Below, one piece after another: positions 7,124 through 64,000 of a stretch of DNA of 64,000 bases; position 1 is the stretch's first letter, and each line of letters starts with the position of its first letter. Origin of the DNA: Methanobacteriota archaeon. GTDB taxonomy: Archaea > Thermoplasmatota > E2 > DHVEG-1. The notes beneath the pieces are model-generated. The model ran no database searches and was not told the origin of the DNA. It saw only the letters and a program-made list of their open reading frames with translations. The stretch covers positions 96,001-160,000 of the forward strand of contig CAVYNH010000005.1 in assembly GCA_963769885.1 (NCBI GenBank). Direction: 5' to 3'. The position numbers and the translations under genes are program-made.

Positions 7124-7840
7124 ATGGAGATGTGGATGCTCGATGGAATCAGGCTTATTCTCGGAACCATCATCCTCCTCTACGCCTCCTACACCGACAT
7201 CAAGACACGGCACGCCTCCAACATCCTCTGGATCGTCATGGGCACCACCGGCGTCATCCTTCTCGCCATCCAATACTTCTTCTTCGGCTTCTCCAACTTT
7301 TGGTACCTCGTCTTCATCCCTATCATCATCGCCCTCATGTACGCCCTCTTCCAGATGCGCCTCATCTTCGGCGGCGCCGACGCCAAAGCCATGATGGCCC
7401 TCGCCGTCCTCGTCCCAATCGAACCGAAACTGAACAGCATTCCTCTCTTATGGACACCAATCTCAATGCCCTGGTCCTGGGTCATCTTCGCCAACGCCGT
7501 CCTCCTCTTCCTCATCATCCCCCTCAGCCTCATCATCTACAACGCCGCCAAACACAACCTCAAAATGCCCTACGCCTTCCTCGGCTACAAGATGAACATC
7601 CAAAAAGCCAAGACCAAGTTCGTCTGGCCCCTAGAAAAACTCGTCGACGGCAAACGCAAATTCTCCCGCATCCCCGACGAATTCGACGAAACCAGCCACC
7701 TCAAAGCCTTCGAAGACGCAGGCATCGACGAGATCTGGGTCACCCCCAAAATCCCCTTCATGGTCCCCCTTCTCGCCGGCTTCCTCACCGCCTTTTTCCT
7801 TGGCGACCTCATCAGTGCCTTCTTGCAAGCCATCCTCTAA
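7124..7840 (+). CDS. Prepilin/prearchaellin peptidase (A24B, FlaK/PibD type)
   Basis: ASYTDIKTR, FGGADAKA (GxGD-type aspartates), C-terminal IWVTPKIPFMVPL, multi-TM. Start set at the internal ATG 7124. Confidence 0.93.
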   Translation: MEMWMLDGIRLILGTIILLYASYTDIKTRHASNILWIVMGTTGVILLAIQYFFFGFSNFWYLVFIPIIIALMYALFQMRLIFGGADAKAMMALAVLVPIEPKLNSIPLLWTPISMPWSWVIFANAVLLFLIIPLSLIIYNAAKHNLKMPYAFLGYKMNIQKAKTKFVWPLEKLVDGKRKFSRIPDEFDETSHLKAFEDAGIDEIWVTPKIPFMVPLLAGFLTAFFLGDLISAFLQAIL

Positions 7841-51747: not shown

Positions 51748-53460
51748 TTGAAGCTGACCCTGAAGGTTCTCATCGGCAACCTCTTGTTCATTGCGGTCTT
51801 TTTCCTCATCATTGCGAGGATTTTTTCCGTCGTCTCTGGCGCCGTGTTCCCGGTCGATATTGTGACCTCGGATTCCATGAGTCCGTCGCTGATAACGGGG
51901 GATCTGGTCACCTGGTCGCCCGCGTCCATTCAGGACGTTAAGGTCGGGGATATCGTCGTCTATAAGAGCTGGCTGCACTGGCCTGACACGAAGTTCATCG
52001 TGCACCGCGTCATCGAGGTCCGCGAGGACTTCGGCAAGATCGCGCTGGTCACCAAGGGAGACGCGAACCGGTGGACCGACCAGGCTGGGCCGCATGCGCC
52101 CGAGCCGTACGTGACCGAGAAGAACTTCGTCGGTAAGGCGATCATGCTCGGCCCTGTGCCCTTGAAGATCCCGTTGGTCGGCTACGTTGGCATCCTGGTC
52201 AACGAAGGTTTCCGATTGTTGACGCAGTCCTCGGCGGCGAAAGGGACCTCGACGACGATCTGGGTCTTCACGCCCCTGACCGTGTCCGTCATCCTCCTGG
52301 TCATCGCCATCTTCCTGGTCCCTGAACGCCGGAAGACCATCCAAGAGAAAATCAGGTACTACATCCTGAGTTCACGGTCCTTGAACCTGAAGAAAACCGC
52401 CGTGTTCTTCTTCCTCCTGTTCACCGCCTTCTTCTTCATCATCCATCTGTTCGCGTATGATACGGTGACGGGGGCGGTCGGCGTCGGCGAATTCGCCTCA
52501 AAGAATGGCATGGACCTTGGGGCACTGGAGCCGGGGCAGACCGGGTTCCCTCGGGAGATCTCCGTTGTCAATCCTAGCGTTTTCCCTGTCAAAGGCATTA
52601 TCTTCGGGAGGCAAGGCATGGAGCCGCTCCTCAATCACGTCGTCTTCACGGTGGGAGCAGGTAAGATCAAGCCACAGAACATCTCCGCCTCCGTCCCAAA
52701 CGGGACCGCGAACGGCTCGTACGTCGGCGACATCGCCATCTACTCCTCCCCTCTCTGGCTGCTCTTCCCAGACGAGGTCCTACTCACGGTGTCGCAAGCA
52801 GACCCCAGCCTCGTGGTTATTATTCTGGATCTCATCAGTGCCGCGATCCTCACGGCGGTCACACTCCTGATCATCCTTGCCGCTGCCCTACTCGAGGAGA
52901 CGGCCTACGTTCTCCAGGTCAATCTCTCCTGGCACTATGCCCCACGGCCGATGCTGAAAACCCGATGGAGAGCGCGGATTGCCCATGCGCGCCTCCGATT
53001 TCGCCGCGGACTGGCGAGGAACGTCCTCTGGGTAAGCCAGGTAAACCTCGCGTCGCTGCAGGCGCGGCCGTTCCTGATCGGCGGCCTCATCGCCGTCCCC
53101 TTCTTCTTCCTCATGCAAAGCACGCTTACAGCTTTGGTGGTCGCCGCGGTCCTCGCCGGGCTGGTCGCCTACCTCTTTCGCTGCCGGCTGCGGGAAAAGA
53201 TCGTCCTTGCGGTCGTCATGTCCCTGTGTGTCTCCCTGTGTCTGCTCATGGGCAAGATCGGCTTCGACATCCTCACCGCCTCCCGCTCGGTCATAGAGAC
53301 CCTCGGGCTGGTCATGGGCGCGCTCGGGATTTATCTGCTCGTCGTCGCGTTCCTGCTCGTTCCTGTGGTCCTGACGTCGTGGGGGCTAACGCACCTCTGC
53401 CGAAATGTTAAAGAACAGCGTGACCCATTACTGGCCCTGGAGGGTGGATGCGACCTCTAA
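51748..53460 (+). CDS. Signal peptidase I (S26B) with large C-terminal membrane and extracellular extension
   Basis: SDSMSP, GDL, IVHRV, TKGDAN, followed by about 380 extra residues. TTG start with a GGAGGTG RBS. Confidence 0.88.
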   Translation: MKLTLKVLIGNLLFIAVFFLIIARIFSVVSGAVFPVDIVTSDSMSPSLITGDLVTWSPASIQDVKVGDIVVYKSWLHWPDTKFIVHRVIEVREDFGKIALVTKGDANRWTDQAGPHAPEPYVTEKNFVGKAIMLGPVPLKIPLVGYVGILVNEGFRLLTQSSAAKGTSTTIWVFTPLTVSVILLVIAIFLVPERRKTIQEKIRYYILSSRSLNLKKTAVFFFLLFTAFFFIIHLFAYDTVTGAVGVGEFASKNGMDLGALEPGQTGFPREISVVNPSVFPVKGIIFGRQGMEPLLNHVVFTVGAGKIKPQNISASVPNGTANGSYVGDIAIYSSPLWLLFPDEVLLTVSQADPSLVVIILDLISAAILTAVTLLIILAAALLEETAYVLQVNLSWHYAPRPMLKTRWRARIAHARLRFRRGLARNVLWVSQVNLASLQARPFLIGGLIAVPFFFLMQSTLTALVVAAVLAGLVAYLFRCRLREKIVLAVVMSLCVSLCLLMGKIGFDILTASRSVIETLGLVMGALGIYLLVVAFLLVPVVLTSWGLTHLCRNVKEQRDPLLALEGGCDL

Positions 53461-53481
53461 CGGTGAGGGTGATGCAGTAAA

Positions 53482-54504
53482 ATGCCTCTTTTAAAGCGAA
53501 AGACTGTCCCCGCATCGCCCGTCTCATCCGACTCGCCTGCACTCTCGAATCAGTTGTCTCGATTTCAGCGTCGAAAGCCCTCCGCGACCCCGCAGGAGCC
53601 GCAGACGCCCAACGAGACGACCTCGTCTGATGCCTACTCATTCCTTGACTCCGAGCAGCCTGACCAGAACGCCTTTGAGGACCTCGGAGACCTACCAACG
53701 ACCACGGCGCCGAAGCGGCCGGCCTACTGGCAGAAGGAGATGGCCGGCAAACCCGTGTTCCTCGAAGACACCGGGGAGCGGCTCGGCGAGGTCGCGGACC
53801 CCATCCTCGACGCGGAACAGCACCTCATCGGCTACCGGATCAAGGACAACAAGTCCGACGCCGTCCTCAGATTCCCCCTCGAGCAGTTCGACGAAGACAA
53901 GAACGGCCTCATCTTCGTCCCCAGCTGGTACAGCAAAGGTGTCAAGACCGTGGAGAAGCTGGAGTTCAAAGACCGTATCACCCCGGAGCTCATGTGGCTG
54001 ATCACGGACAACACCGTCCCGATGCAGGACCTGTACCGCGTCTTCGTCCGCCATGACGATACTATCACAGGGTACTTGGAGGAGGCCGGTAGCCTCCGCG
54101 AACTGCTCACCCAGCGCCTCCGGATTCTGGAAAAAGAGCGGCTGTCGCTCAAAGAAAGCCTCATGGACCTCACCGAGAAACGCCTCATCAAGGACATCGA
54201 CCGCAGGGAGTTCTCCGACATCATCATCGAGCACCGCCGCAAGGTCAACGTCCTCGATAACAACATGAAGAAATGCAGCGACCTGCTCGCCCGTCTCCAA
54301 AAAACGTCCTTCGGCATGCTCAGCCTCGCACTCCACGCCGCCACCGCACCCTCACCAGGTCCTCACACGGACCGCGACCCGACCACAGACCAGGCCTACC
54401 AAGAGAAATACAACCAGCTCAAACAACAGTACGCCAAACTGCACGAGGGCTACGAAGAACTGAAGACCGCCGTGGAACGCCTCCTGACCAGCACCGACGT
54501 CTAA
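53482..54504 (+). CDS. PRC-barrel plus coiled-coil protein, CdvA-like
   Basis: GKPVFLEDTGERLGEV..I.GY PRC pattern, LIFVPSW, then two helical hairpin/coiled-coil segments. Confidence 0.75.
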   Translation: MPLLKRKTVPASPVSSDSPALSNQLSRFQRRKPSATPQEPQTPNETTSSDAYSFLDSEQPDQNAFEDLGDLPTTTAPKRPAYWQKEMAGKPVFLEDTGERLGEVADPILDAEQHLIGYRIKDNKSDAVLRFPLEQFDEDKNGLIFVPSWYSKGVKTVEKLEFKDRITPELMWLITDNTVPMQDLYRVFVRHDDTITGYLEEAGSLRELLTQRLRILEKERLSLKESLMDLTEKRLIKDIDRREFSDIIIEHRRKVNVLDNNMKKCSDLLARLQKTSFGMLSLALHAATAPSPGPHTDRDPTTDQAYQEKYNQLKQQYAKLHEGYEELKTAVERLLTSTDV

Positions 54505-54597
54505 TCCCCAGTCCATTTCCAAAAGGTAATAAGCAAAGAACCGCATTTCCTTTAAGTAGACAACACCGAGTGGGATACCCTGGGGTGAGGAAGAATC

Positions 54598-57500
54598 ATG
54601 TCGGACGATTTTCATACAGAAGCCAAGGAAAAACCGACCACCGGCCAGGACACCGCGCACTTCATCCTCAACAGCCGTGGCGAACTCCTCGACGCCAGCG
54701 ACGCCTTCTGCCGCCTGGCCGGCAGACGCCGCGATGCCCTCATCGGCACCACCCTGGAAGACGCTGGACTTCTCACCGACATCTCCGCCAAGGCGCTCCG
54801 CCGCCGCCACGTCTCTGTTCTCATCGGCAAAGCACCTCACACCTACACCCTCGAAGTCCGCGCCAAAGACGGCGGCATCTCCCTCCTCCACATCGACTCC
54901 ATCCCCTACCTCAAAGACGGCAGACTCATCGGCGAGCTCGCCACCGTCCACAGCATCACCCCCCAACCCCCATCCACCGACCAACCACTCACGACCATGA
55001 CGACTGAGCCGCGCCCAGGCACCGACCCCACCGCGATCCTCCAAGACCGCCTCGAAGACCAACACCACAAACTCCACCAGACCCAACAGAAACTCCGCAA
55101 GGCACTTCTCGACCTCGAAACCAAGACCTCACACATCCAAGGGCTCCAAGACGAGCTCGACGACACCGAACAGCAGCTCCGCCAACGCCTCCACGACCTC
55201 GACGACGCCACCAAACAACTCAGACAACGCCAATTCCTCCTCGACCAAAAAGATCAAGAACTCACCCGCCTCCGCGACGACCTCACCGCCGAGACCAGCC
55301 AACACCAAACCAAGAACATGGAACTTGAACACCTCAACGCCAGGCTTCAAGACGCCCTCACCACCGCCGAAAACCTCGGCGAAGACCTCACAGAGGCCCA
55401 GCGACTCCTCCTCCAGAAGACCCATGACGCCGACCAAAAGGCCGCCGAGATCAAAAACCTCACCGGCCTCCTCGAGGACACCCGTCAGACCCTCGCCGCC
55501 CTCCAAGCCGAGCAAGAAGGCATCATCGAAACAAACCAGGCGCTCACCAGCCAACTGACTCAAACTCGGCAGGACGCCGAGACCACCGCTGACACGCTCC
55601 GGCAGACCCAACAGCAGCTCCAAACCAAAGACCAAGACCTCGCCGCCGTCCAGGCCGCGCTCCACGCTAAAACCCAAGCACTCGCCGAGCAAACCATCCA
55701 CTTCACCGAACTCCAAGAAGCCGTCCGAAGCCTCCAGGAGACCATCGCCGAACTCCGTCAAGCCCACACCGACAACGAAACCGCCCTCGCCGGCCTCACC
55801 CAACGCCTCACCGAAAAAGACCAAGTCCTCCAACAAGCAGCCCAGGACCTCGACCGCACCCACGCCGAAACCCACACCCTCCTCGGCAAACTCGACAGCA
55901 GAGAAAAATACATCAGCTACCAAAACAACCAGCTTGACCGCTACGTCCACCAACAAAACATACTCACACAACAACTCAACGACCTCACTGCAGCCCTAGA
56001 AAAACAGACCGCGGACCACCACGCCACTGTCCTCGCCCTCGACCACAGCCACGATGAAACCGATCTTCGCACCGCCGAGATCCGCCGACTGTCCCGCCTC
56101 CTCGCCGACGCCCGACGCCACGCCGACGCCATCACCATCGATCTCGCCGACACCAAGACCCACGCCCTCGAAACCACGGCACAGCTCCAAGACCGACTCA
56201 CCGAACTCCACGCCCTCCAAACACAGCACCACGACCAGGAGGACGCCATCACCCGCCTCCGAAGTCAGATCACCGAACGGAACACCATCATCCAACAACT
56301 CACCGACCAGGTTGAAAACCTTCACCAGGCCGCGGCAGCCGCCGCCCACGACCACGACAGCCTCGCCACCGCCCTCACCGACACGAAAGACGAGACCAAC
56401 CGCCTCCAGGACGCCCTCACCCAAAAAGAAGGCGACCTCCGAGACAAAGACGCTGAAATCACCGACCTGCGGACAGCGCTGCGGACCGCAGAACACCACC
56501 TCAAGACCATTACCCAGACCGCCACCTGCCTTGAACAAGAACTCCAGAAAAAAGACGCAGTCCTCGAACAAAAAACCGACCTCATCAACACCCTCCAATC
56601 CGACCTCGAAGACCAACACCGAGACCTCCAAGAACACCTTCGCCATGCAACCCACCTCCACACTGAGTTCACCGATACCCAACACCTCCTCGCCGACCTC
56701 CAAAAAGAGATAGCCGAAACCACCGCCGTCAGCGCACTCCTCCAAGAGCAACTCACCGCCACAACTGAGGACCGTGACCACCACGCCCAACTCCTCACTC
56801 AGACTACCCAAGACCTCCAAACCCGAACCCACCTCCTCGACACACAGACTGAGGAACTCACCCGCCTCAAGGCCGACCTCGCCAAATACACCCAAGACCT
56901 CGACCACAGCCATCAACGCATCATCGAACTCGAAACCGAGCTTGAAGAAAAAACGACGGCCCTCGACGACACCACCCGACTCCTCACCCAAGCCACACAA
57001 GAAGCCCAGGCACGCACCCAAGAGGTCAGCGAACTCACCGCCGGCCTCAACGCCCGCAACCGCGAACTCGACCAACAACTCCAACTCATCGCCACCTTCA
57101 AACAAGAATCATTCGATAACCACCTCAGCCTCACCGGACTCAACGAAGAACTCGCCGCCCGCCAGCACGAGCTCCAAACACAGACCGCAGCCCTCACCCA
57201 ACTCCAAGAAACACTCACCGCACTCCAGAAAGACAACGCAGACCACACCGCCCTCATCGCCATCCTCAAAACCGAACAAGCCACCAAACAAGCCCTCCTC
57301 GAACAACAGACCGAGGCCCTCACCAGACAACGCCACGAGCTCACCCACCTCCACGACAACCTCGACGCTCAAAAACACCTCCGAGAAGAAACAGACCAAA
57401 GACTCCACGAGACCCTCACCCAACTCCAAACCCACAAAGACCACATCTCCAAACTCTCCACTGAGCTTCTCGCCAAAAACCAACAACTCCAAACCATCGA

Positions 57501-60500
57501 ACAGACCCTCCAGCAGCACCAACACGACCTCCAAGAAAAAACACAGCTCATCCAACACACCCACCACCAACTCGCAGACCTCGAAAAAGAACTCCACAGC
57601 CACCACCAAGAAATCAACGACCTCCACCACTCCCTTGACGAACGCAACCAAATCATCGCCGACCTCACCGGCCAACTCACCGACACCCAAAGCAGCCTGC
57701 TCCAAGAGGCCAAGGCCGCCGACACTCTCAACGACAACCTCACCAACACCAGAACCCTCCTCACCCAGACCCAAGCAGAGCTGGAAACTAGCCACCACCA
57801 GCTTCACCAGGCCAAGAGCGACTGTGAACGCCTCACCGAACAGCACACCGCCCTCACCGCCGAACTCCAACGAATCACCACAGAGCTCGCCGCGCAACAC
57901 CTGGCATCCCAAAAACAAAAAACCGAACTCAAAGACCTTCAAACCGAGATCCACACCCGAGACTTCCTGATCTCCGACCTCACTCATCAACTCACCAAAG
58001 AACAGACCACAATCACCCAAAAAACCCAAGAAAACCAGACGTTAACCGAGGAGCTCGCCCGCACATCCGAACTCCTCCTCCAAGGTCAAGAATCCCTCAC
58101 CGCCAAACAAAATGAACTAACAGAGGCCACGCAGACACTCGACGAGCTCACCACCACCATCCAATCACTTAAAGAAGAGATAGAAACCCGGGACATCATC
58201 ATCAGCGACCTCACCCAACAGGCCAGTGAAGAACAATCAAAACTCGTCACCACCGCAACCCAGATCGAAGACCTCACCAGAGAACTTACCGAAACCCAAG
58301 ACAGGCTACACGGCAGCCAAACCGCAGGCCTTGCACAGGAAGCCGAGCTCACCCGACTTAAGGAAGAACTCCACGACCGCCTCCAGGACCTCGCCTACCG
58401 CAACAACGATCTCAACGACCATAAGGCTCGAATCAACCAGCTCAGCACACAAATCGAGACCCAAGCCCAGGCCCTCCAGCAGGATCAAGCAGAACTCGCA
58501 CGCCTGAACCAACTCAACCGCCAACAAGCTCTCGACCTCAAACAGGCGCGCGAGGAGACTGAAAAACAATGGATGGAATTAGTCCTCAAGAACATCGACA
58601 TCCAGGATAAAAGCGAACTTATCACCGAACTCAACGAAAAAATCACCCAAGACCAACAGATCATCACTATAGCAGAGAGCGACTTCCAGACCAAGACCAC
58701 GCATCTCTCAAGCCAAATCCAGGACCTCCAGAGTACACTGCAAAACACCCGGACCATGCTCGAACAATCCACCGACGAAATCCAAAGCCTCAACCAAGAG
58801 ATCATCGGAAAGGACCGGCTCCTCCAAGACCTCAGCCGACAACTCAGCGACGAACAGACCTCCCTCATCGAGACTGTCTCAAAAAAACACCAGCTCGAAT
58901 CGGAAGTCGAGGTACAACGACAGCACAATGAGACGCTGCAGGGAACGCTCCGTGACAAAGAACAACACCTCCACCAAATCGAGGAGGCTCTCAAGTCCAG
59001 CGAGCTTCAACTCACGGACCTACAACGGGAACTCACGGGTAAAACTCGAGACCTCGAGATCGCCACAACCGAGTTGACCGCCAGGGAGGACCATCTCGAG
59101 AAACTGCAAGCCTCCCATACTTCACTTCTCCAAGATGACGAGAGACTGAAAAAGCAACTCGAGGACCTCACACTGGAGAAGCAGAACCTGCGATCATTGC
59201 TCGACAGCATCGAACAAGGAAGCGCCTCCTCCATCATCATGACCGATGCCAAAGGCATCATCACCTCGTGGAACCCGCGCGCCGAGCAGCTGTTCAACAT
59301 GCCCGTCACCTCCGCAATCGGACGACAGCTTACAGACCTTCCATTCCTCAAAGACGCCCTCTCAAATACCGTGAACATCCTCACAAAGACCTCTGAACAT
59401 TCGATCATCATCAAGAACCAGCGGAACGAGGAGCTCCTCACGGATATCTCACGGATTCCTCTGCTCAACGACGTCGGAGAAGGTTATGGGTCTCTCATCA
59501 TCATCGATGATGTTACACCGATGGCTGGGTTGCATGCAGAACTCTGTAAAAACAAGGCGGATCTTGAGGCGCTCAGCAATCGCTATCAACAATCCTTCAG
59601 AAAAATGGCGATTGCCGAGAAGGAGCTACAGGAGAACGAAACCGAGTTGCGTGTTAAAAAGCAGGCTCTTGCTGAACAAGCCCAGGAGATTTCGGGGCTT
59701 CAGAAGGAACTCGAGCGTCATTTTGAGGTGGTGAAAACCAAGAATTCGCAGTTGGAGCAAGTGGTTAGAACCCTTCAAGAACGAGACTCGGAACTCGATG
59801 AGTTGCGTCAGAAGACCACCAATGGCCAAGACGAGCTCCTGCATGCCAAGAACCTTATTGCGAATCTGGAAAACGAGCATCATCGAACGGTCGATGAGCT
59901 GCATGATGTTTCGACAAAGTTGAAGGAAGCACAAAAGGAAATCATAAGATCCGAGGATCTATGCCAGAGGTTCCAGGCGCACCTCCTCAAGCAACAATGC
60001 GAGGTGAGCCAAAAGGAGCTTGAGATTAAGACCCTGGGGGATAGCGCTGAGAATCGGACGAGGGAACTGGAGATTGTCACGAAGCGGCTTGAGGACAGCA
60101 CGCTGCAGCTGTCGGCCTCTACAATCAGGATTGAGAGAGCGGAGAAGGATTTGAAGAAACGAGAGGAGGAAGCATTGCTTCTCCGCCAGCAGGTAAAAGA
60201 AAGGCAGACCGTACTTCTCAGGGTCACTGATGAGAGAGACAACATCGTGCAACAATGTGAAACCCTGAAGACCGACCTTGTTTCTGCTCGGAAGGACATG
60301 GAGGAGCTCTCGAGTGAATTAAAGGCGAATAAGGCATCGGTGCTTTGGTTCAAGACGGAACTTGAGGGGACGAAGGAAACCTTGCGGCTCAAGGAGAACG
60401 ATGTGCATGTGAGACTTGCAGAAGCGGAGGATCTGCGAAAACAAATCGGTGAGCTTAAGATTGCTCTTCTTGAAAGGAACCATGACGTAGAACACGTACG

Positions 60501-61575
60501 GGAGGAGGTCGAGGGCCGGCAACAGCAGATAGGCATCCAGGAGCAGATTGTGCAGGAGTTAAAGAAACAGCTTGCGGCACGGCAGGTCCAGGTGAAGCAA
60601 CGAGAGGATGAGCTGTGGCAAAAGACCCAGCTCATCGAGAATTTAAAAGGCGAGCTTGAACGTTATCAGCAGCGAATCTCGGACCTTGAGAGTTCCTCGC
60701 TGGAGCAGGAAAAGGAGGCGGCGCAACGCAGCTCGGTGCCGGCGCTGAAGACCCAGGAGATCAGCGTTTTACAGGAAGAACTGGAGAAAATCACCGAGAA
60801 GCTCCGGGAAAGGGACGGGGAAATGCTCGAGGTTCGGAAACAGTTGGAGGCTGCTCGCTTGGAGGCAAACAAGAGGAAACTGGAGGTTGAGGATCTCAGC
60901 CTCAAGTGCCGTCTAATTCAAAACGAGATTCCTTCATCTGTGATCATGGTGGATGAGAAGAATCAGATCGCAGCGTGGAACAAGAGGGCGGAGATGCTGT
61001 TGGGTGTGGAGGCGAAGAAGGCGATTGGTTGCGACTTGTTCAATTTGTCGTTCATGGAGCGGGAGCGGCTGCGGGAGGGCTACGCCCAGAGTGTCTCGAA
61101 CCGAAGGGATGTGACAATCAAGGCGATCATCTTTCCCTCGTCGAATGAGGAGAAGGCCTTGGTGGATGTCACCATCCATCCGGTATTTGGTGAGGCAGGA
61201 AATCCTATGGGTGCACTATTGGTCATGGATGATGTGACGAGCCGGGTGGCGGTCGAGGCGGAGCTTCATCGGAAGGAGGCTGAGGTCGGTGAGTTGAATC
61301 AGCGGTTGGCGGATTCGTTTAAGAAGAATGTGTTGTCGGCGTTGGAGGGGGATGCGTCGAAGCGTCAGGCGGTGGGTGAGGTGGCGCGGCCGGCGTTCGA
61401 GGATCGGACGGTGATTGCGGGGGATTTGTCGGTGGTGGCGTCGCGGCGGCCGGCTGAGGAGGGGCCGGTGGATGAAGCGTGGCAGGAGCGTGTGCGGGTG
61501 TGCGGGGAGATCGAGCGTCGGTTGGATGAGGCGGGGGTGGTGAAGGTGAAGAAGGAAAAGGAGGAGGGGAAGTAG
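54598..61575 (+). CDS. Giant (2325 aa) coiled-coil protein with three PAS domains
   Basis: PAS motifs at about aa 20-120 (ILNSRGELLDAS), 1535-1640 (IMTDAKGIITSWN...DDVT) and 2105-2215 (IMVDEKNQIAAWN...DDVT), with heptad-rich sequence between them. Confidence 0.88.
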   Translation: MSDDFHTEAKEKPTTGQDTAHFILNSRGELLDASDAFCRLAGRRRDALIGTTLEDAGLLTDISAKALRRRHVSVLIGKAPHTYTLEVRAKDGGISLLHIDSIPYLKDGRLIGELATVHSITPQPPSTDQPLTTMTTEPRPGTDPTAILQDRLEDQHHKLHQTQQKLRKALLDLETKTSHIQGLQDELDDTEQQLRQRLHDLDDATKQLRQRQFLLDQKDQELTRLRDDLTAETSQHQTKNMELEHLNARLQDALTTAENLGEDLTEAQRLLLQKTHDADQKAAEIKNLTGLLEDTRQTLAALQAEQEGIIETNQALTSQLTQTRQDAETTADTLRQTQQQLQTKDQDLAAVQAALHAKTQALAEQTIHFTELQEAVRSLQETIAELRQAHTDNETALAGLTQRLTEKDQVLQQAAQDLDRTHAETHTLLGKLDSREKYISYQNNQLDRYVHQQNILTQQLNDLTAALEKQTADHHATVLALDHSHDETDLRTAEIRRLSRLLADARRHADAITIDLADTKTHALETTAQLQDRLTELHALQTQHHDQEDAITRLRSQITERNTIIQQLTDQVENLHQAAAAAAHDHDSLATALTDTKDETNRLQDALTQKEGDLRDKDAEITDLRTALRTAEHHLKTITQTATCLEQELQKKDAVLEQKTDLINTLQSDLEDQHRDLQEHLRHATHLHTEFTDTQHLLADLQKEIAETTAVSALLQEQLTATTEDRDHHAQLLTQTTQDLQTRTHLLDTQTEELTRLKADLAKYTQDLDHSHQRIIELETELEEKTTALDDTTRLLTQATQEAQARTQEVSELTAGLNARNRELDQQLQLIATFKQESFDNHLSLTGLNEELAARQHELQTQTAALTQLQETLTALQKDNADHTALIAILKTEQATKQALLEQQTEALTRQRHELTHLHDNLDAQKHLREETDQRLHETLTQLQTHKDHISKLSTELLAKNQQLQTIEQTLQQHQHDLQEKTQLIQHTHHQLADLEKELHSHHQEINDLHHSLDERNQIIADLTGQLTDTQSSLLQEAKAADTLNDNLTNTRTLLTQTQAELETSHHQLHQAKSDCERLTEQHTALTAELQRITTELAAQHLASQKQKTELKDLQTEIHTRDFLISDLTHQLTKEQTTITQKTQENQTLTEELARTSELLLQGQESLTAKQNELTEATQTLDELTTTIQSLKEEIETRDIIISDLTQQASEEQSKLVTTATQIEDLTRELTETQDRLHGSQTAGLAQEAELTRLKEELHDRLQDLAYRNNDLNDHKARINQLSTQIETQAQALQQDQAELARLNQLNRQQALDLKQAREETEKQWMELVLKNIDIQDKSELITELNEKITQDQQIITIAESDFQTKTTHLSSQIQDLQSTLQNTRTMLEQSTDEIQSLNQEIIGKDRLLQDLSRQLSDEQTSLIETVSKKHQLESEVEVQRQHNETLQGTLRDKEQHLHQIEEALKSSELQLTDLQRELTGKTRDLEIATTELTAREDHLEKLQASHTSLLQDDERLKKQLEDLTLEKQNLRSLLDSIEQGSASSIIMTDAKGIITSWNPRAEQLFNMPVTSAIGRQLTDLPFLKDALSNTVNILTKTSEHSIIIKNQRNEELLTDISRIPLLNDVGEGYGSLIIIDDVTPMAGLHAELCKNKADLEALSNRYQQSFRKMAIAEKELQENETELRVKKQALAEQAQEISGLQKELERHFEVVKTKNSQLEQVVRTLQERDSELDELRQKTTNGQDELLHAKNLIANLENEHHRTVDELHDVSTKLKEAQKEIIRSEDLCQRFQAHLLKQQCEVSQKELEIKTLGDSAENRTRELEIVTKRLEDSTLQLSASTIRIERAEKDLKKREEEALLLRQQVKERQTVLLRVTDERDNIVQQCETLKTDLVSARKDMEELSSELKANKASVLWFKTELEGTKETLRLKENDVHVRLAEAEDLRKQIGELKIALLERNHDVEHVREEVEGRQQQIGIQEQIVQELKKQLAARQVQVKQREDELWQKTQLIENLKGELERYQQRISDLESSSLEQEKEAAQRSSVPALKTQEISVLQEELEKITEKLRERDGEMLEVRKQLEAARLEANKRKLEVEDLSLKCRLIQNEIPSSVIMVDEKNQIAAWNKRAEMLLGVEAKKAIGCDLFNLSFMERERLREGYAQSVSNRRDVTIKAIIFPSSNEEKALVDVTIHPVFGEAGNPMGALLVMDDVTSRVAVEAELHRKEAEVGELNQRLADSFKKNVLSALEGDASKRQAVGEVARPAFEDRTVIAGDLSVVASRRPAEEGPVDEAWQERVRVCGEIERRLDEAGVVKVKKEKEEGK

Positions 61576-61584
61576 GGGCTGGGT

Positions 61585-62196
61585 TTAAGGGTAGAGGGTG
61601 ACGAGGCTGTTGGTGGTGTAGGGGACGTCGAAGGTGAAGGTTTGTTGTTGTCCGGGGGTGGGGGTGATGGTGAGTTGGAGGGTGTCGTAGGGTCGTAGGT
61701 AGGTTTGTTCTGGGAGTTTGACGAGGAGGAAGCCGGCGTCTGTGTTTTTGTTGAGGGTGTGAGCGGCGAGGGCGGAGCCGTCGTCGTCCGTGATCATTTG
61801 GATGGTGAATGACCCAGGTTTGAATTGGTCCCAGGCGGGGTTGTGGAAGAGGGCATTGGTGGGCTCGTCTTTGGGGACGTCTCGGTAGGGGAGGATGAAG
61901 GCGTCGTCGGGGAGGGTGAGTTGGAGTTGTATTTTGGTGAGGTCGATGGTGCCGGTGATGAGGGGGCGGATGTGGATGGCGAGGCGTTGGATGCCGTTTG
62001 GGGTGTCGTATTTGCCGATGATTTGGTCGATTTTGAGGTAGGTGGTGAGGTCGTTGGTGATGTCGGTGACGGCTTGGTCGAGGGCGTTGTTGGCAGTGGT
62101 TTGGTTCTTGATGAAGATGGAGCCGGCGGTGGCGCCGATGGCGATGACGGAGGTGATGAGGACGATGGGGAGGAGGCCGAGGGTTGCGTCTGACAT
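61585..62196 (-). CDS. Divergent archaellin-like protein
   Basis: N-terminal hydrophobic helix, ITNDLTTYLKIDQIIG, LAIHIRP, IDLTK, DDDGS. These align by eye with the adjacent archaellin. Confidence 0.7.
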   Translation of the reverse strand: MSDATLGLLPIVLITSVIAIGATAGSIFIKNQTTANNALDQAVTDITNDLTTYLKIDQIIGKYDTPNGIQRLAIHIRPLITGTIDLTKIQLQLTLPDDAFILPYRDVPKDEPTNALFHNPAWDQFKPGSFTIQMITDDDGSALAAHTLNKNTDAGFLLVKLPEQTYLRPYDTLQLTITPTPGQQQTFTFDVPYTTNSLVTLYP

Positions 62197-62421
62197 AGGT
62201 GCTCTGGGTGTTGGGGTTGGCGGGCGGCTTTATATGTCTTATTGAACAGTTGGTACCGAGGGTAGGGGGCTTCTCCTGGTTTTTCAGTGGTTTCGGTTTT
62301 TTTTGGTTTTGGGATTTTTCCGCCATACGATTAAATAATTGGCCGTGTGAAACATTTCCACGATAGTCCTTGTCCTGGCATCAGGTCGCAAGGATAACGA
62401 AAGAACAGAAGGTGAAAGGAA

Positions 62422-63279
62422 ATGGAAAAACGGTATATGGAAAGGCTGGTAGGCAGGTACTGTAAAATCGTGACCAAGGAACCTGGCGAAGACCGCGCCA
62501 GTGTCGTCACAGGTGTTCTCGAAGATGTTGACTACAAAGACGGGTTCCTCATAATCGATTCCTCCCAGGGCCTCGGTTGCCTGCGCATGGACACGGTGAT
62601 TGCCATTAAACCAGGAACCAAGCGCCAACCCGAGAGGAAGCCCCTGAAAAAAAATGCCCAGGCCGAGGTCGGTATCGGCACCCTCATTGTGTTCATCGCA
62701 TTAGTCCTCGTCGCAGCGATAGCGGCAAGCGTCATCATGCAGACTGCTGAGACCCTGCAGCAGCGGGCCTATGCAGTCGGTAAACAAACCATCCGTGATG
62801 TATCCAGCGGTATTCGAATTATTGGTGTCACTGGATACACAGACGTCAACAAGACCAAGGTTGATTACCTTGCCCTCGCAATCACTCCCCGCGCTGGATC
62901 GTACGATATCGATCTGAACAAGACTCTCCTCTATCTCCAACTCGACAATTTTACTATCCTAAGCCTGAACCCGAATGCCAAAGCAGGCACGGTCGCGCAA
63001 GGCGGGGTGTTCTCGACCCTCAACCTCTCCCAACTGAACGCCACGAACTATGGGCTCATCTCTATTCATGACTCCGATAATTCAATTATGAATAGCAACG
63101 GTATTAGCACTTCGGATCAGGCAATGCTCATTGTGAACCTCACGGCGGCCCTCCCGATGACTCAGGGTCTGAGAGCAGGGGACACCCTGGAAGGTAAAAT
63201 CGTCCCCGAAGTGGGGGTTAGCGGTATCTTTGTAGTTAACGCGCCCAATGCCTTTAAATACCGCGTGGTCGAGGTTTAA
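62422..63279 (+). CDS. arlB: Archaellin (FlaB/ArlB) with 81-residue N-terminal leader
   Basis: QA|EVGIGTLIVFIALVLVAAIAASVI, VSSGI, PRAGS.DIDL. GAAGGTGA RBS before the ATG. Confidence 0.93.
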   Translation: MEKRYMERLVGRYCKIVTKEPGEDRASVVTGVLEDVDYKDGFLIIDSSQGLGCLRMDTVIAIKPGTKRQPERKPLKKNAQAEVGIGTLIVFIALVLVAAIAASVIMQTAETLQQRAYAVGKQTIRDVSSGIRIIGVTGYTDVNKTKVDYLALAITPRAGSYDIDLNKTLLYLQLDNFTILSLNPNAKAGTVAQGGVFSTLNLSQLNATNYGLISIHDSDNSIMNSNGISTSDQAMLIVNLTAALPMTQGLRAGDTLEGKIVPEVGVSGIFVVNAPNAFKYRVVEV

Positions 63280-63467
63280 GGAAGAACTCATACGACAAGA
63301 GGCGGAATTTCGCCTCCCCTTCTCTTTCTTTTTTTCTCCAGAAAAGCATCCTCTCAATTTGACAGAATGCCGTTTTGCTGTTCAACCCGAGCATCTATAA
63401 ATACATTCACCAGCGAACCATACTTGCTACATGCTGGCAAACAGCATGGGAACGAAGGTGAACGAAA

Positions 63468-64000
63468 ATGGAACGCAAGAACATGGAAAGGCTCATCGGA
63501 AACTATTGCAAAATCGTAACTAAAGAACCCGGAGACAACCGCGCCAGCGTCATCACCGGCTATGTCGAGGATGTCGACTACAAAAACGGGTTTATCCTCG
63601 TCAACTCAGCCCAAGGACTCGGGTGTCTACGCATCAACACCGTCGTCGCTATAAAACCTGGGACGATGCGACCGGATAAAAAGAAAATTTTCATCAATTC
63701 ACAGGCCGAGGTCGGCATCGGCACCCTGATTGTCTTCATCGCCTTAGTCCTAGTCGCAGCCATTGCTGCGAGCGTTATAATGCAGACTGCAGAAACCCTT
63801 CAACAACGGGCGTACGCGGTCGGAAAACAAACTATCCGGGACGTCTCTAGCGGAATCCGAATCATCGGCGTCACCGGATACACGGACACTAACAAGACCA
63901 AGATCGATTACCTTGCCATCGCCATTACTCCCCGCGCCGGATCCTACGATATCGATCTGAATAAGACCCTCCTCTACCTCCAACTCGACAACTTCACCAT
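63468..64000 (+). CDS. arlB: Second archaellin with 80-residue N-terminal leader, truncated by window edge
   Basis: Not in the ORF track. Manual translation: MERKNMERLIGNYCKIVTKEPG...NSQA|EVGIGTLIVFIALVLVAAIAASVI. Same RBS as the first copy. Confidence 0.93.
   Translation, partial: MERKNMERLIGNYCKIVTKEPGDNRASVITGYVEDVDYKNGFILVNSAQGLGCLRINTVVAIKPGTMRPDKKKIFINSQAEVGIGTLIVFIALVLVAAIAASVIMQTAETLQQRAYAVGKQTIRDVSSGIRIIGVTGYTDTNKTKIDYLAIAITPRAGSYDIDLNKTLLYLQLDNFT

Follow-up and report, generated by a model that had tools for sequence, protein, structure and literature searches.

A block of three adjacent genes was analyzed near the right end of a 64,000-nucleotide stretch of archaeal DNA (hereafter the window; C5:96001-160000, on contig CAVYNH010000005.1 of a seven-contig, 2.09-Mb assembly, 92% complete, assigned to the DHVEG-1 lineage of the Thermoplasmatota). 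The genes encode an extended type I signal peptidase, a protein with a predicted CdvA fold and a giant PAS/coiled-coil protein; the three are referred to here as the trio, and the first two as the pair. On the basis of genes and predicted folds, and with a probability of about one half, the trio is interpreted as the SipW-like peptidase and the CdvA-fold scaffold/sensor of a non-type-IV filament system that was joined to the archaellum (arl) genes in the family of the window. The trio itself is a real, conserved module that had not been described: literature searches returned no description of it, and a survey of PRC-barrel proteins mentioned neither a peptidase nor an archaellum context.

The conservation of the block was evaluated with a pattern scan using one genome per species, which recovered 23 loci, all in metagenome-assembled genomes of Thermoplasmata. 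The order peptidase, CdvA-like gene, giant gene was held in every one of these species-level loci, distributed over 18 genera of f1 (f1 denotes the family of the window, f2, f4, f6 and f10 other families of the same class, f4 and f10 being sister families), and was also present in genomes beyond the scanned loci. An archaellin-like gene on the opposite strand and a leader-bearing arlB came next in 13/13 loci with contig past the giant gene and, where the contig allowed, a PAS gene, arlC and later arl genes continued after arlB. Moreover, the CdvA-like gene and the gene for ArlH were located on the same contig and strand, 10-25 kb apart, in 10 genomes. The flank upstream of the peptidase gene, formed in the genome of the window by a divergent M50 protease, a SpoU methylase and a prolyl-tRNA synthetase, differed among genera, and these three genes recurred only in a genome of the same genus; since this flank is not kept beyond the genus, the conserved block ends at the peptidase. 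An earlier reading of the window from its sequence only had proposed that these genes form a locus; the neighborhood proved to be a linked block rather than a chance one, joined in f1 to a complete arl operon wherever the contig permits.

Phyletic counts were obtained by profile searches of 196 genomes of the class plus that of the window. The CdvA-like profile was matched in 38/107 genomes of f1, 16/25 of f4 and 11/13 of f10, and in none of the 8 genomes of f2 or the 32 of f6, while ArlH was found in 82/107 genomes of f1 and 7/8 of f2, and in none of the 25 and 13 genomes of f4 and f10, respectively. At the class level the two were not associated (both in 33 genomes, CdvA-like only in 32, ArlH only in 71, neither in 60; odds ratio of approximately 0.9). 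A weak co-occurrence was observed within f1, where ArlH was present in 28 of the 31 genomes with a strong CdvA-like match vs. 54/76 of the others. Archaellated genomes lacking the trio included the closed genome G008 and all of f2, and no Arch_flagellin match was found in five f4/f10 genomes of 95-99% completeness, which showed only a FlaI-like ATPase below the cut-off. Core archaellum components are expected to be present or absent together; here, both ArlH without the trio and the pair without ArlH were observed.

The gene that the pair does follow encodes a secreted, pilin-like protein. Its profile was matched in 42/107 genomes of f1, 12/25 of f4 and 10/13 of f10, and in no other family. 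Within f1, it was present in all 31 genomes with a strong CdvA-like match, compared with 11 of the 76 others and, counted by genus, in 18/18 genera with the CdvA-like gene vs. about 6/22 without it. Class-wide, both genes were found in 53 genomes, the CdvA-like gene only in 12, the pilin-like gene only in 11, and neither in 120. The pilin-like protein is the better correlate of the pair than ArlH, and the contrast is large. The sequence-only reading was to be given up if the genes proved unlinked or did not co-occur with archaellins in related genomes; linkage to archaellins stands for f1, while the occurrence of the pair in f4 and f10 genomes without ArlH counts in part against the proposal.

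In f4 and f10, the pair belongs to an operon with the order ~220-amino acid (aa) secreted protein, second secreted protein, extended peptidase, and a CdvA-like::PAS::HisKA fusion, to which f10 adds a gene for a receiver-domain protein after the fusion gene. The second secreted protein ranges from 222 to 823 aa, some forms bearing DUF2341, and the fusion protein has about 405 aa, the start of its gene overlapping the stop of the peptidase gene. The genes of the pair overlap or sit close together in three families at 30-50% identity. The ~220-aa protein is the pilin-like one, and its gene lies directly upstream of the peptidase gene in f4, f10 and several f1 loci. In the genome of the window, two copies are found elsewhere, at C6:333057-333755 and about C4:26452-27174. 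In one f4 genome (G182), a FlaI-like ATPase and an ArlJ/TadC-like protein were encoded directly upstream of the secreted-protein/peptidase/CdvA-like cluster (L084:7813-9567 and L084:10356 to L066:2334); such a pair of genes lay ~12 kb off in G163, and on another contig in three other genomes.

The pilin-like protein has invariant A22, T23 and Q24 at the end of its signal helix, giving the motif AxA|TQ(Y/F)A with a canonical AxA| site. Its ~220-aa chain was modeled as a beta-sandwich (pLDDT 70), for which the top three matches in VIA were the Sulfolobus acidocaldarius thread (7pnb, Z 7.7), the Pyrobaculum calidifontis ABP (7ueg, Z 7.4) and Natrinema Tafi (9p0a, Z 6.6), every one of them an archaeal donor-strand pilin. 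Pfam searches with this and the second secreted protein returned nothing except DUF2341 on one long form. A donor-strand pilin identity for the secreted protein is taken as a lead suggested by this model.

The trio peptidase falls by score and by its conserved Ser, His and Asp within the archaeal/ER-type (endoplasmic reticulum-type) signal peptidase I family (TIGR02228, S26B), as judged from sequence: it matched TIGR02228 with 78 bits (6.8e-22; cut-off 51.85) over residues 9-148 only, and also the SipW model (1.5e-10). Residues S43, H86 and D105/D111 were invariant among 28 orthologues, which also shared a conserved C-terminal tail, RNVKE.KDPLL.LEG.CDL. According to the hydropathy profile, an N-terminal transmembrane segment and the catalytic domain (residues ~1-150) are followed by a polytopic membrane extension of ~420 aa. 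This extension includes an extracytoplasmic, hydrophilic and beta-rich insert of ~100 aa (~242-343) and an Arg-rich loop (~392-436) with 10 K/R and 0 D/E; when searched against the ESM Atlas, it retrieved only clusters of its own kind, at 0.80. The genome of the window has two signal peptidase I genes, the trio peptidase being one of them. In several trio genomes the trio peptidase was the sole TIGR02228 match, and no match at all was found in 22/41 relatives, two closed (single-contig) genomes among these; because signal peptidase I is so patchy among relatives, the trio peptidase is more likely a dedicated than a housekeeping enzyme.

The second protein of the trio has no transmembrane segment, and its single sequence matched the PRC and CdvA coiled-coil domains of Pfam, both slightly below their cut-offs. 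A profile built from 11 orthologues matched the solved CdvA structure 9s9g across both domains (E 1.8e-5). An AlphaFold2 model (core pLDDT 85-94, ending in a 38-residue C-terminal helix) had Sulfolobus islandicus CdvA (9s9g) as its top PDB match (E 3.5e-9, TM-score 0.73 on the target), the alignment covering 192 columns against a chain of 194 residues. Chains of this CdvA filled the nine top PDB rows, with plain PRC barrels far lower and CdpB1/B2 among the weaker matches. The predicted fold is that of CdvA (arCOG04054 / PF18822 with PF05239). Another mark of CdvA, a C-terminal E3B peptide recruiting the ESCRT-III protein CdvB, with cdvB and cdvC present and usually adjacent, was not found, and a search of the 92%-complete genome of the window detected no ESCRT-III (Snf7). 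In the modeled structure, this protein is a CdvA fold outside the Cdv system. It differs from the CdvA of the crenarchaeal CdvABC system in its sequence (identity of only ~14%), in its neighbors (a signal peptidase and a PAS coiled coil instead of cdvB/cdvC), in its C-terminal element (an amphipathic helix, or PAS-HisKA in the sister families, in place of the E3B peptide) and in its host, which has FtsZ, encoded by two genes in the genome of the window. CdvA combines a PRC domain with a coiled coil of three helices and forms antiparallel double filaments (PMC12818579), held by hydrophobic contacts between coiled coils; in an alignment of low confidence, the family consensus is hydrophobic at about four of the six positions that serve polymerization in S. 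islandicus CdvA.

When clustered at 50% and 90% identity, the CdvA-like family forms 113 and 289 clusters, respectively; it carries only the public names PRC-barrel, YlmC-like or hypothetical, and shows ~45-55% identity across the 18 genera of the block. In distant relatives (P0057, P0060, P0080; L072:9058-10683 in G109), the domain stands behind two PKD domains and a signal/transmembrane segment, which indicates a membrane-spanning form with an extracellular part. The motif M-x-[LF]-F-[KR]-[KR] at the N-terminus (alignment columns 1-14) was also observed on unrelated coiled-coil open reading frames (ORFs), at L080:11137-13062 (G044, 641 aa) and L041:8771-10144 (G012, 457 aa), which adjoin the giant or the archaellin-like gene, in the same position, in genomes without the pair.

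The giant protein is soluble, has neither a transmembrane segment nor an output domain, and contains PAS regions at ~20-125, 1545-1640 and 2105-2220 with an SMC-like coiled coil between them. Conservation is highest in the N-terminal PAS-like domain (~20-125), with ~22-29% identity over the N-terminal region. Complete orthologues have 976-2435 aa and open frames reach 2823 aa. The giant gene adjoined the CdvA-like gene in 30/31 f1 genomes with a strong CdvA-like match, the exception being G049, where the two are on separate short contigs. A second gene for a PAS/coiled-coil/PAS protein (440 aa; L001:2367-3689, minus strand) lies antisense between arlB and arlC, and was observed in the same place in every arl locus examined in f1 and f2, trio present or not. 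This 440-aa protein was considered as a recent paralogue of the giant and rejected, as BLASTP gave coiled-coil noise only. A role of the PAS rod as a substitute for chemotaxis proteins was likewise discarded: CheW was found in 4/31 trio genomes vs. 13/76 others, and most archaellated genomes had neither.

Three altered loci show how the members of the trio can part. The closed genome G003 gave no ArlH match; there, L078:9324-11900 holds part of the peptidase, a remnant of the CdvA-like protein (74 aa) and a giant shortened to 693 aa. G013 retains the giant gene and, beside it, an arlB stub reduced to the leader (76-aa ORF, L079:5668-5898). In the archaellated genome G044, a 641-aa coiled-coil ORF bearing the N-terminal M-x-F-F-K motif of the CdvA-like proteins takes the place of the pair, and a giant of 1285 aa comes after it. 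These patterns suggest that the giant is the member most tied to arl, and the pair the part tied to the secreted protein.

Taken together in a model, the primary partner of the trio would be a secreted surface-filament protein of non-type-IV kind and not the archaellum. The dedicated SipW-like peptidase would cleave the signal of the ~220-aa protein, its predicted substrate and presumably a glycosylated beta-sandwich, while its polytopic extension may serve as a membrane platform. The CdvA-like protein, with its PRC and three-helix fold, could dimerize or polymerize under the membrane and link this platform to a PAS sensor, which would be the fused PAS-HisKA module in the non-archaellated f4 and f10, sometimes with a receiver adjacent, and the separate giant in f1. 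Fixed directly upstream of arlB-arlJ, the f1 trio would most likely coordinate, in place or time, the production of a thread-like filament and of the archaellum; in that role it would assist the archaellum as a sensory scaffold without belonging to its core. A complex prediction with the full-length peptidase and residues 80-340 of the CdvA-like protein scored 0.15 against a mark of 0.32, which speaks neither for nor against binding.

Some results weigh against this filament-module interpretation. The pilin-like genes of the window's own genome are on other contigs, unlinked to the trio; Foldseek with the pilin-like model gave nothing at E<=0.001, and its VIA fold match remained below Z 8. The genomes of a clade are not independent, so that the co-occurrence counts are descriptive and overstate the case. 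In G044 the giant stays beside the archaellin-like gene and arlB without the peptidase and the CdvA-like gene, and the trio remnants in the closed, ArlH-less G003 would fit an archaellum-dependent role equally well.

The last two observations favor the main alternative, in which the extension of the peptidase would be the anchor for a CdvA-like polymer and for the giant rod, and the three proteins would build a polar-cap-like or positioning structure for archaellar motors. A cytoplasmic structure of unknown composition underlies the archaella of Pyrococcus, Thermococcus and Halobacterium, and the polar-cap proteins of euryarchaea are as yet unknown (PMC13644373). The strict synteny with arl over 18 genera of f1, whose other flanks are shuffled, and the filaments made by solved CdvA (PMC12818579) also agree with such a scaffold. 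Against it, the pair was found in 27/38 genomes of f4 and f10, where ArlH (0/38) and archaellins (0/5) were lacking; ArlH was present in the 54 f1 genomes mentioned above without a strong CdvA-like match, and f2 combined ArlH in 7/8 genomes with the trio in 0/8, in line with the class-wide odds ratio. Moreover, type I signal peptidases whose catalytic residues are intact work on the outer face of the membrane and on Sec substrates, not on archaellins. Most archaellated relatives lack the trio, as do the organisms with observed polar caps, and nothing links it to ArlC/D/E. This alternative is judged unlikely, yet the strongest of those considered; for the f1 form a dedicated archaellar polar cap is possible, and less likely than the filament module. 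The scaffold idea of the sequence-only reading is retained in its conserved block, its arl linkage and its CdvA fold, related to a Sulfolobus protein that polymerizes (PMC12818579), and lost in its specificity for the archaellum, while a non-motility appendage, which that reading had offered as a fallback, fits the data better than a dedicated polar cap. A combination of both ideas, in which a CdvA-fold polymer anchored by the peptidase extension and the PAS rod of variable length (1000-2800 aa) would act as a sensory, cytoskeletal organizing center that gives archaella and a thread-like donor-strand pilus a common site, is more speculative still and rather improbable.

Even less credit is given to the absence of any common function, with a peptidase, a PRC-barrel protein and a PAS protein inherited beside arl by descent alone. 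The link between the members is genomic, much of the synteny could trace to one ancestor, as the trio occurs in a single class, and the length of the giant varies 2.5-fold. On the other hand, the block is conserved between genera when the surrounding gene order is not, the peptidase and CdvA-like genes remain overlapping or closely spaced in the three families despite their divergence, where the giant is missing the CdvA-like domain itself carries PAS as a fusion, and the pilin-like gene has this phyletic profile in common. Finally, that the CdvA-like protein is an adaptor of FtsZ-based division or shape comparable to the PRC-barrel protein CdpB, with the peptidase as membrane anchor, the PAS rod as regulator and the arl neighborhood incidental, is very improbable: PRC-barrel proteins do function in haloarchaeal FtsZ-based division (10.1101/2023.03.28.534520), two FtsZ genes and undetected ESCRT-III would suit this role, and CdpB1/B2 are among the weaker fold matches, but a gene carried by only 38/107 f1 genomes and missing in several sister families does not belong to the division core, its neighborhood is free of division genes, and it co-occurs with the secreted protein.

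The coordinates of the genes are given in Table 1. The peptidase gene has a TTG start preceded by the Shine-Dalgarno sequence GGAGGTGGTG; the 21 nt between it and the CdvA-like gene contain the Shine-Dalgarno sequence GAGGGTGA, the CdvA-like and giant genes are 93 nt apart, and the archaellin-like ORF ends 9 nt from the end of the giant gene. These six ORFs, their spacing and their domain assignments agree with the initial description of the region. A promoter and terminator scan was uninformative, as it used bacterial models on an archaeon.

Table 1. Genes of the trio locus and of the adjoining arl cluster (positions are those of the window, unless a contig or locus is named)
Feature	Position	Strand	Length	Remarks
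Extended type I signal peptidase, archaeal/ER type, SipW-like	51748-53460	+	570 aa	
CdvA-fold protein (predicted fold)	53482-54504	+	340 aa	
Giant PAS/coiled coil/PAS/coiled coil/PAS protein	54598-61575	+	2325 aa	
Archaellin-like protein	61585-62196	-	203 aa	Convergent with giant gene, divergent from arlB; PF01917, 2.4e-9
Archaellin ArlB, copy 1	62422-63279	+	285 aa	
Archaellin ArlB, copy 2	63468 to past window end at 64000 (ends L001:2322)	+	284 aa in full	
arlC, arlD/E, arlF, arlG, arlH, two arlI, arlJ	C5:161885-170417			NCBIfam and Pfam matches

The surmise that further arl genes lie past the right edge of the window was correct, as they start 1.9 kb beyond it. Based on profile matches, arlB to arlJ form one cluster of the euryarchaeal type (arlB-C-D/E-F-G-H-I-J), a complete copy directly after the trio, which stands at the head of the operon. 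The two ArlI copies reached 675 and 659 bits (cut-off 550), and ArlH, ArlJ, ArlF and ArlG matched their own models below the curated cut-offs. The two arlI genes are full-length and in tandem (L001:7355-8974 and L001:9001-10632; C5:165355-168632), ahead of a single arlJ, and this duplication is retained in relatives (L015, L017, L019, L030). Right after arlJ, four further archaellin genes were found on the minus strand (L001:12442-15303), and another on a different contig (C7:114231-114797), for a genome total of nine Arch_flagellin matches. The sole match of the genome to Peptidase_A24, the prepilin/prearchaellin peptidase, was located at 7160-7510 (+) of the window, 44 kb upstream of the arl cluster. 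The assembly of the window, 92% complete, gave no match to CheW, while G001, of the same genus, had CheW and CheA-like matches; the absence may be an assembly gap.

In both archaellins of the window, the Arch_flagellin match begins only at residue ~80, and a leader of ~78 aa precedes the class III hydrophobic segment. Between the two ArlB copies, the leader showed a dN of 0.17 with saturated dS, and it could be aligned from residue 1 in archaellin orthologues from two families (f1 and f2); judged by these sequence comparisons, the leaders are genuine coding sequence under purifying selection. The leader (62422-62664 of the window; L035, L036, L079) was also observed in f2 genomes without the trio, and for that reason it is considered independent of the trio. 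The 203-aa archaellin-like protein has an N-terminal hydrophobic helix, and its orthologues occupied the same place in trio loci and in trio-less loci of two families (L033, L035, L036), its gene being a conserved member of the arl cluster in the order of the window, trio or no trio.

Among known systems, one of the closest comparisons is the tapA-sipW-tasA operon of Bacillus subtilis, in which a dedicated ER-type peptidase is encoded with secreted donor-strand fiber subunits and which is regulated separately from, but alongside, motility. As in that operon, an ER/archaeal-type peptidase is encoded here with one or two small secreted proteins of predicted beta-sandwich fold and a conserved cleavage motif. 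The ~420-aa polytopic extension of the peptidase and the cytoplasmic CdvA-fold/PAS partner in the operon set it apart, and no sequence match to TasA (PF12389) was found. The cognate secreted gene, which marks a dedicated SipW-like enzyme, is beside the peptidase gene in relatives, whereas in the genome of the window the secreted-protein genes are unlinked, as two copies on other contigs. The S. acidocaldarius thread, the P. calidifontis ABP and Natrinema Tafi share with the pilin-like protein a Sec signal, an AxA site and an N-glycosylated beta-sandwich, as far as its sequence and model indicate. Near the pilin genes of threads and ABP, neither a dedicated peptidase nor an assembly factor was detected (PMC9245690, PMC9715654). 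The system considered here differs in having a candidate for such a peptidase and a cytoplasmic partner, and the similarity in fold is too weak for the pilin-like protein to be counted among these pilins.

The family described here bears on several questions of archaeal biology. [quoted passage not shown] The trio also bears on what underlies archaellar motors and, if the organizing-center idea were true, it would be the first molecular candidate for a polar-cap-type structure, and the CdvA fold would be a general membrane-proximal scaffold outside ESCRT-based division. If the filament-module interpretation is true, the operon supplies candidate processing and assembly genes for archaeal donor-strand pili such as threads and ABP, and the junction with arl, together with a PAS rod of variable length, offers a testable candidate for the coupling of swimming and attachment structures in uncultured sediment archaea.

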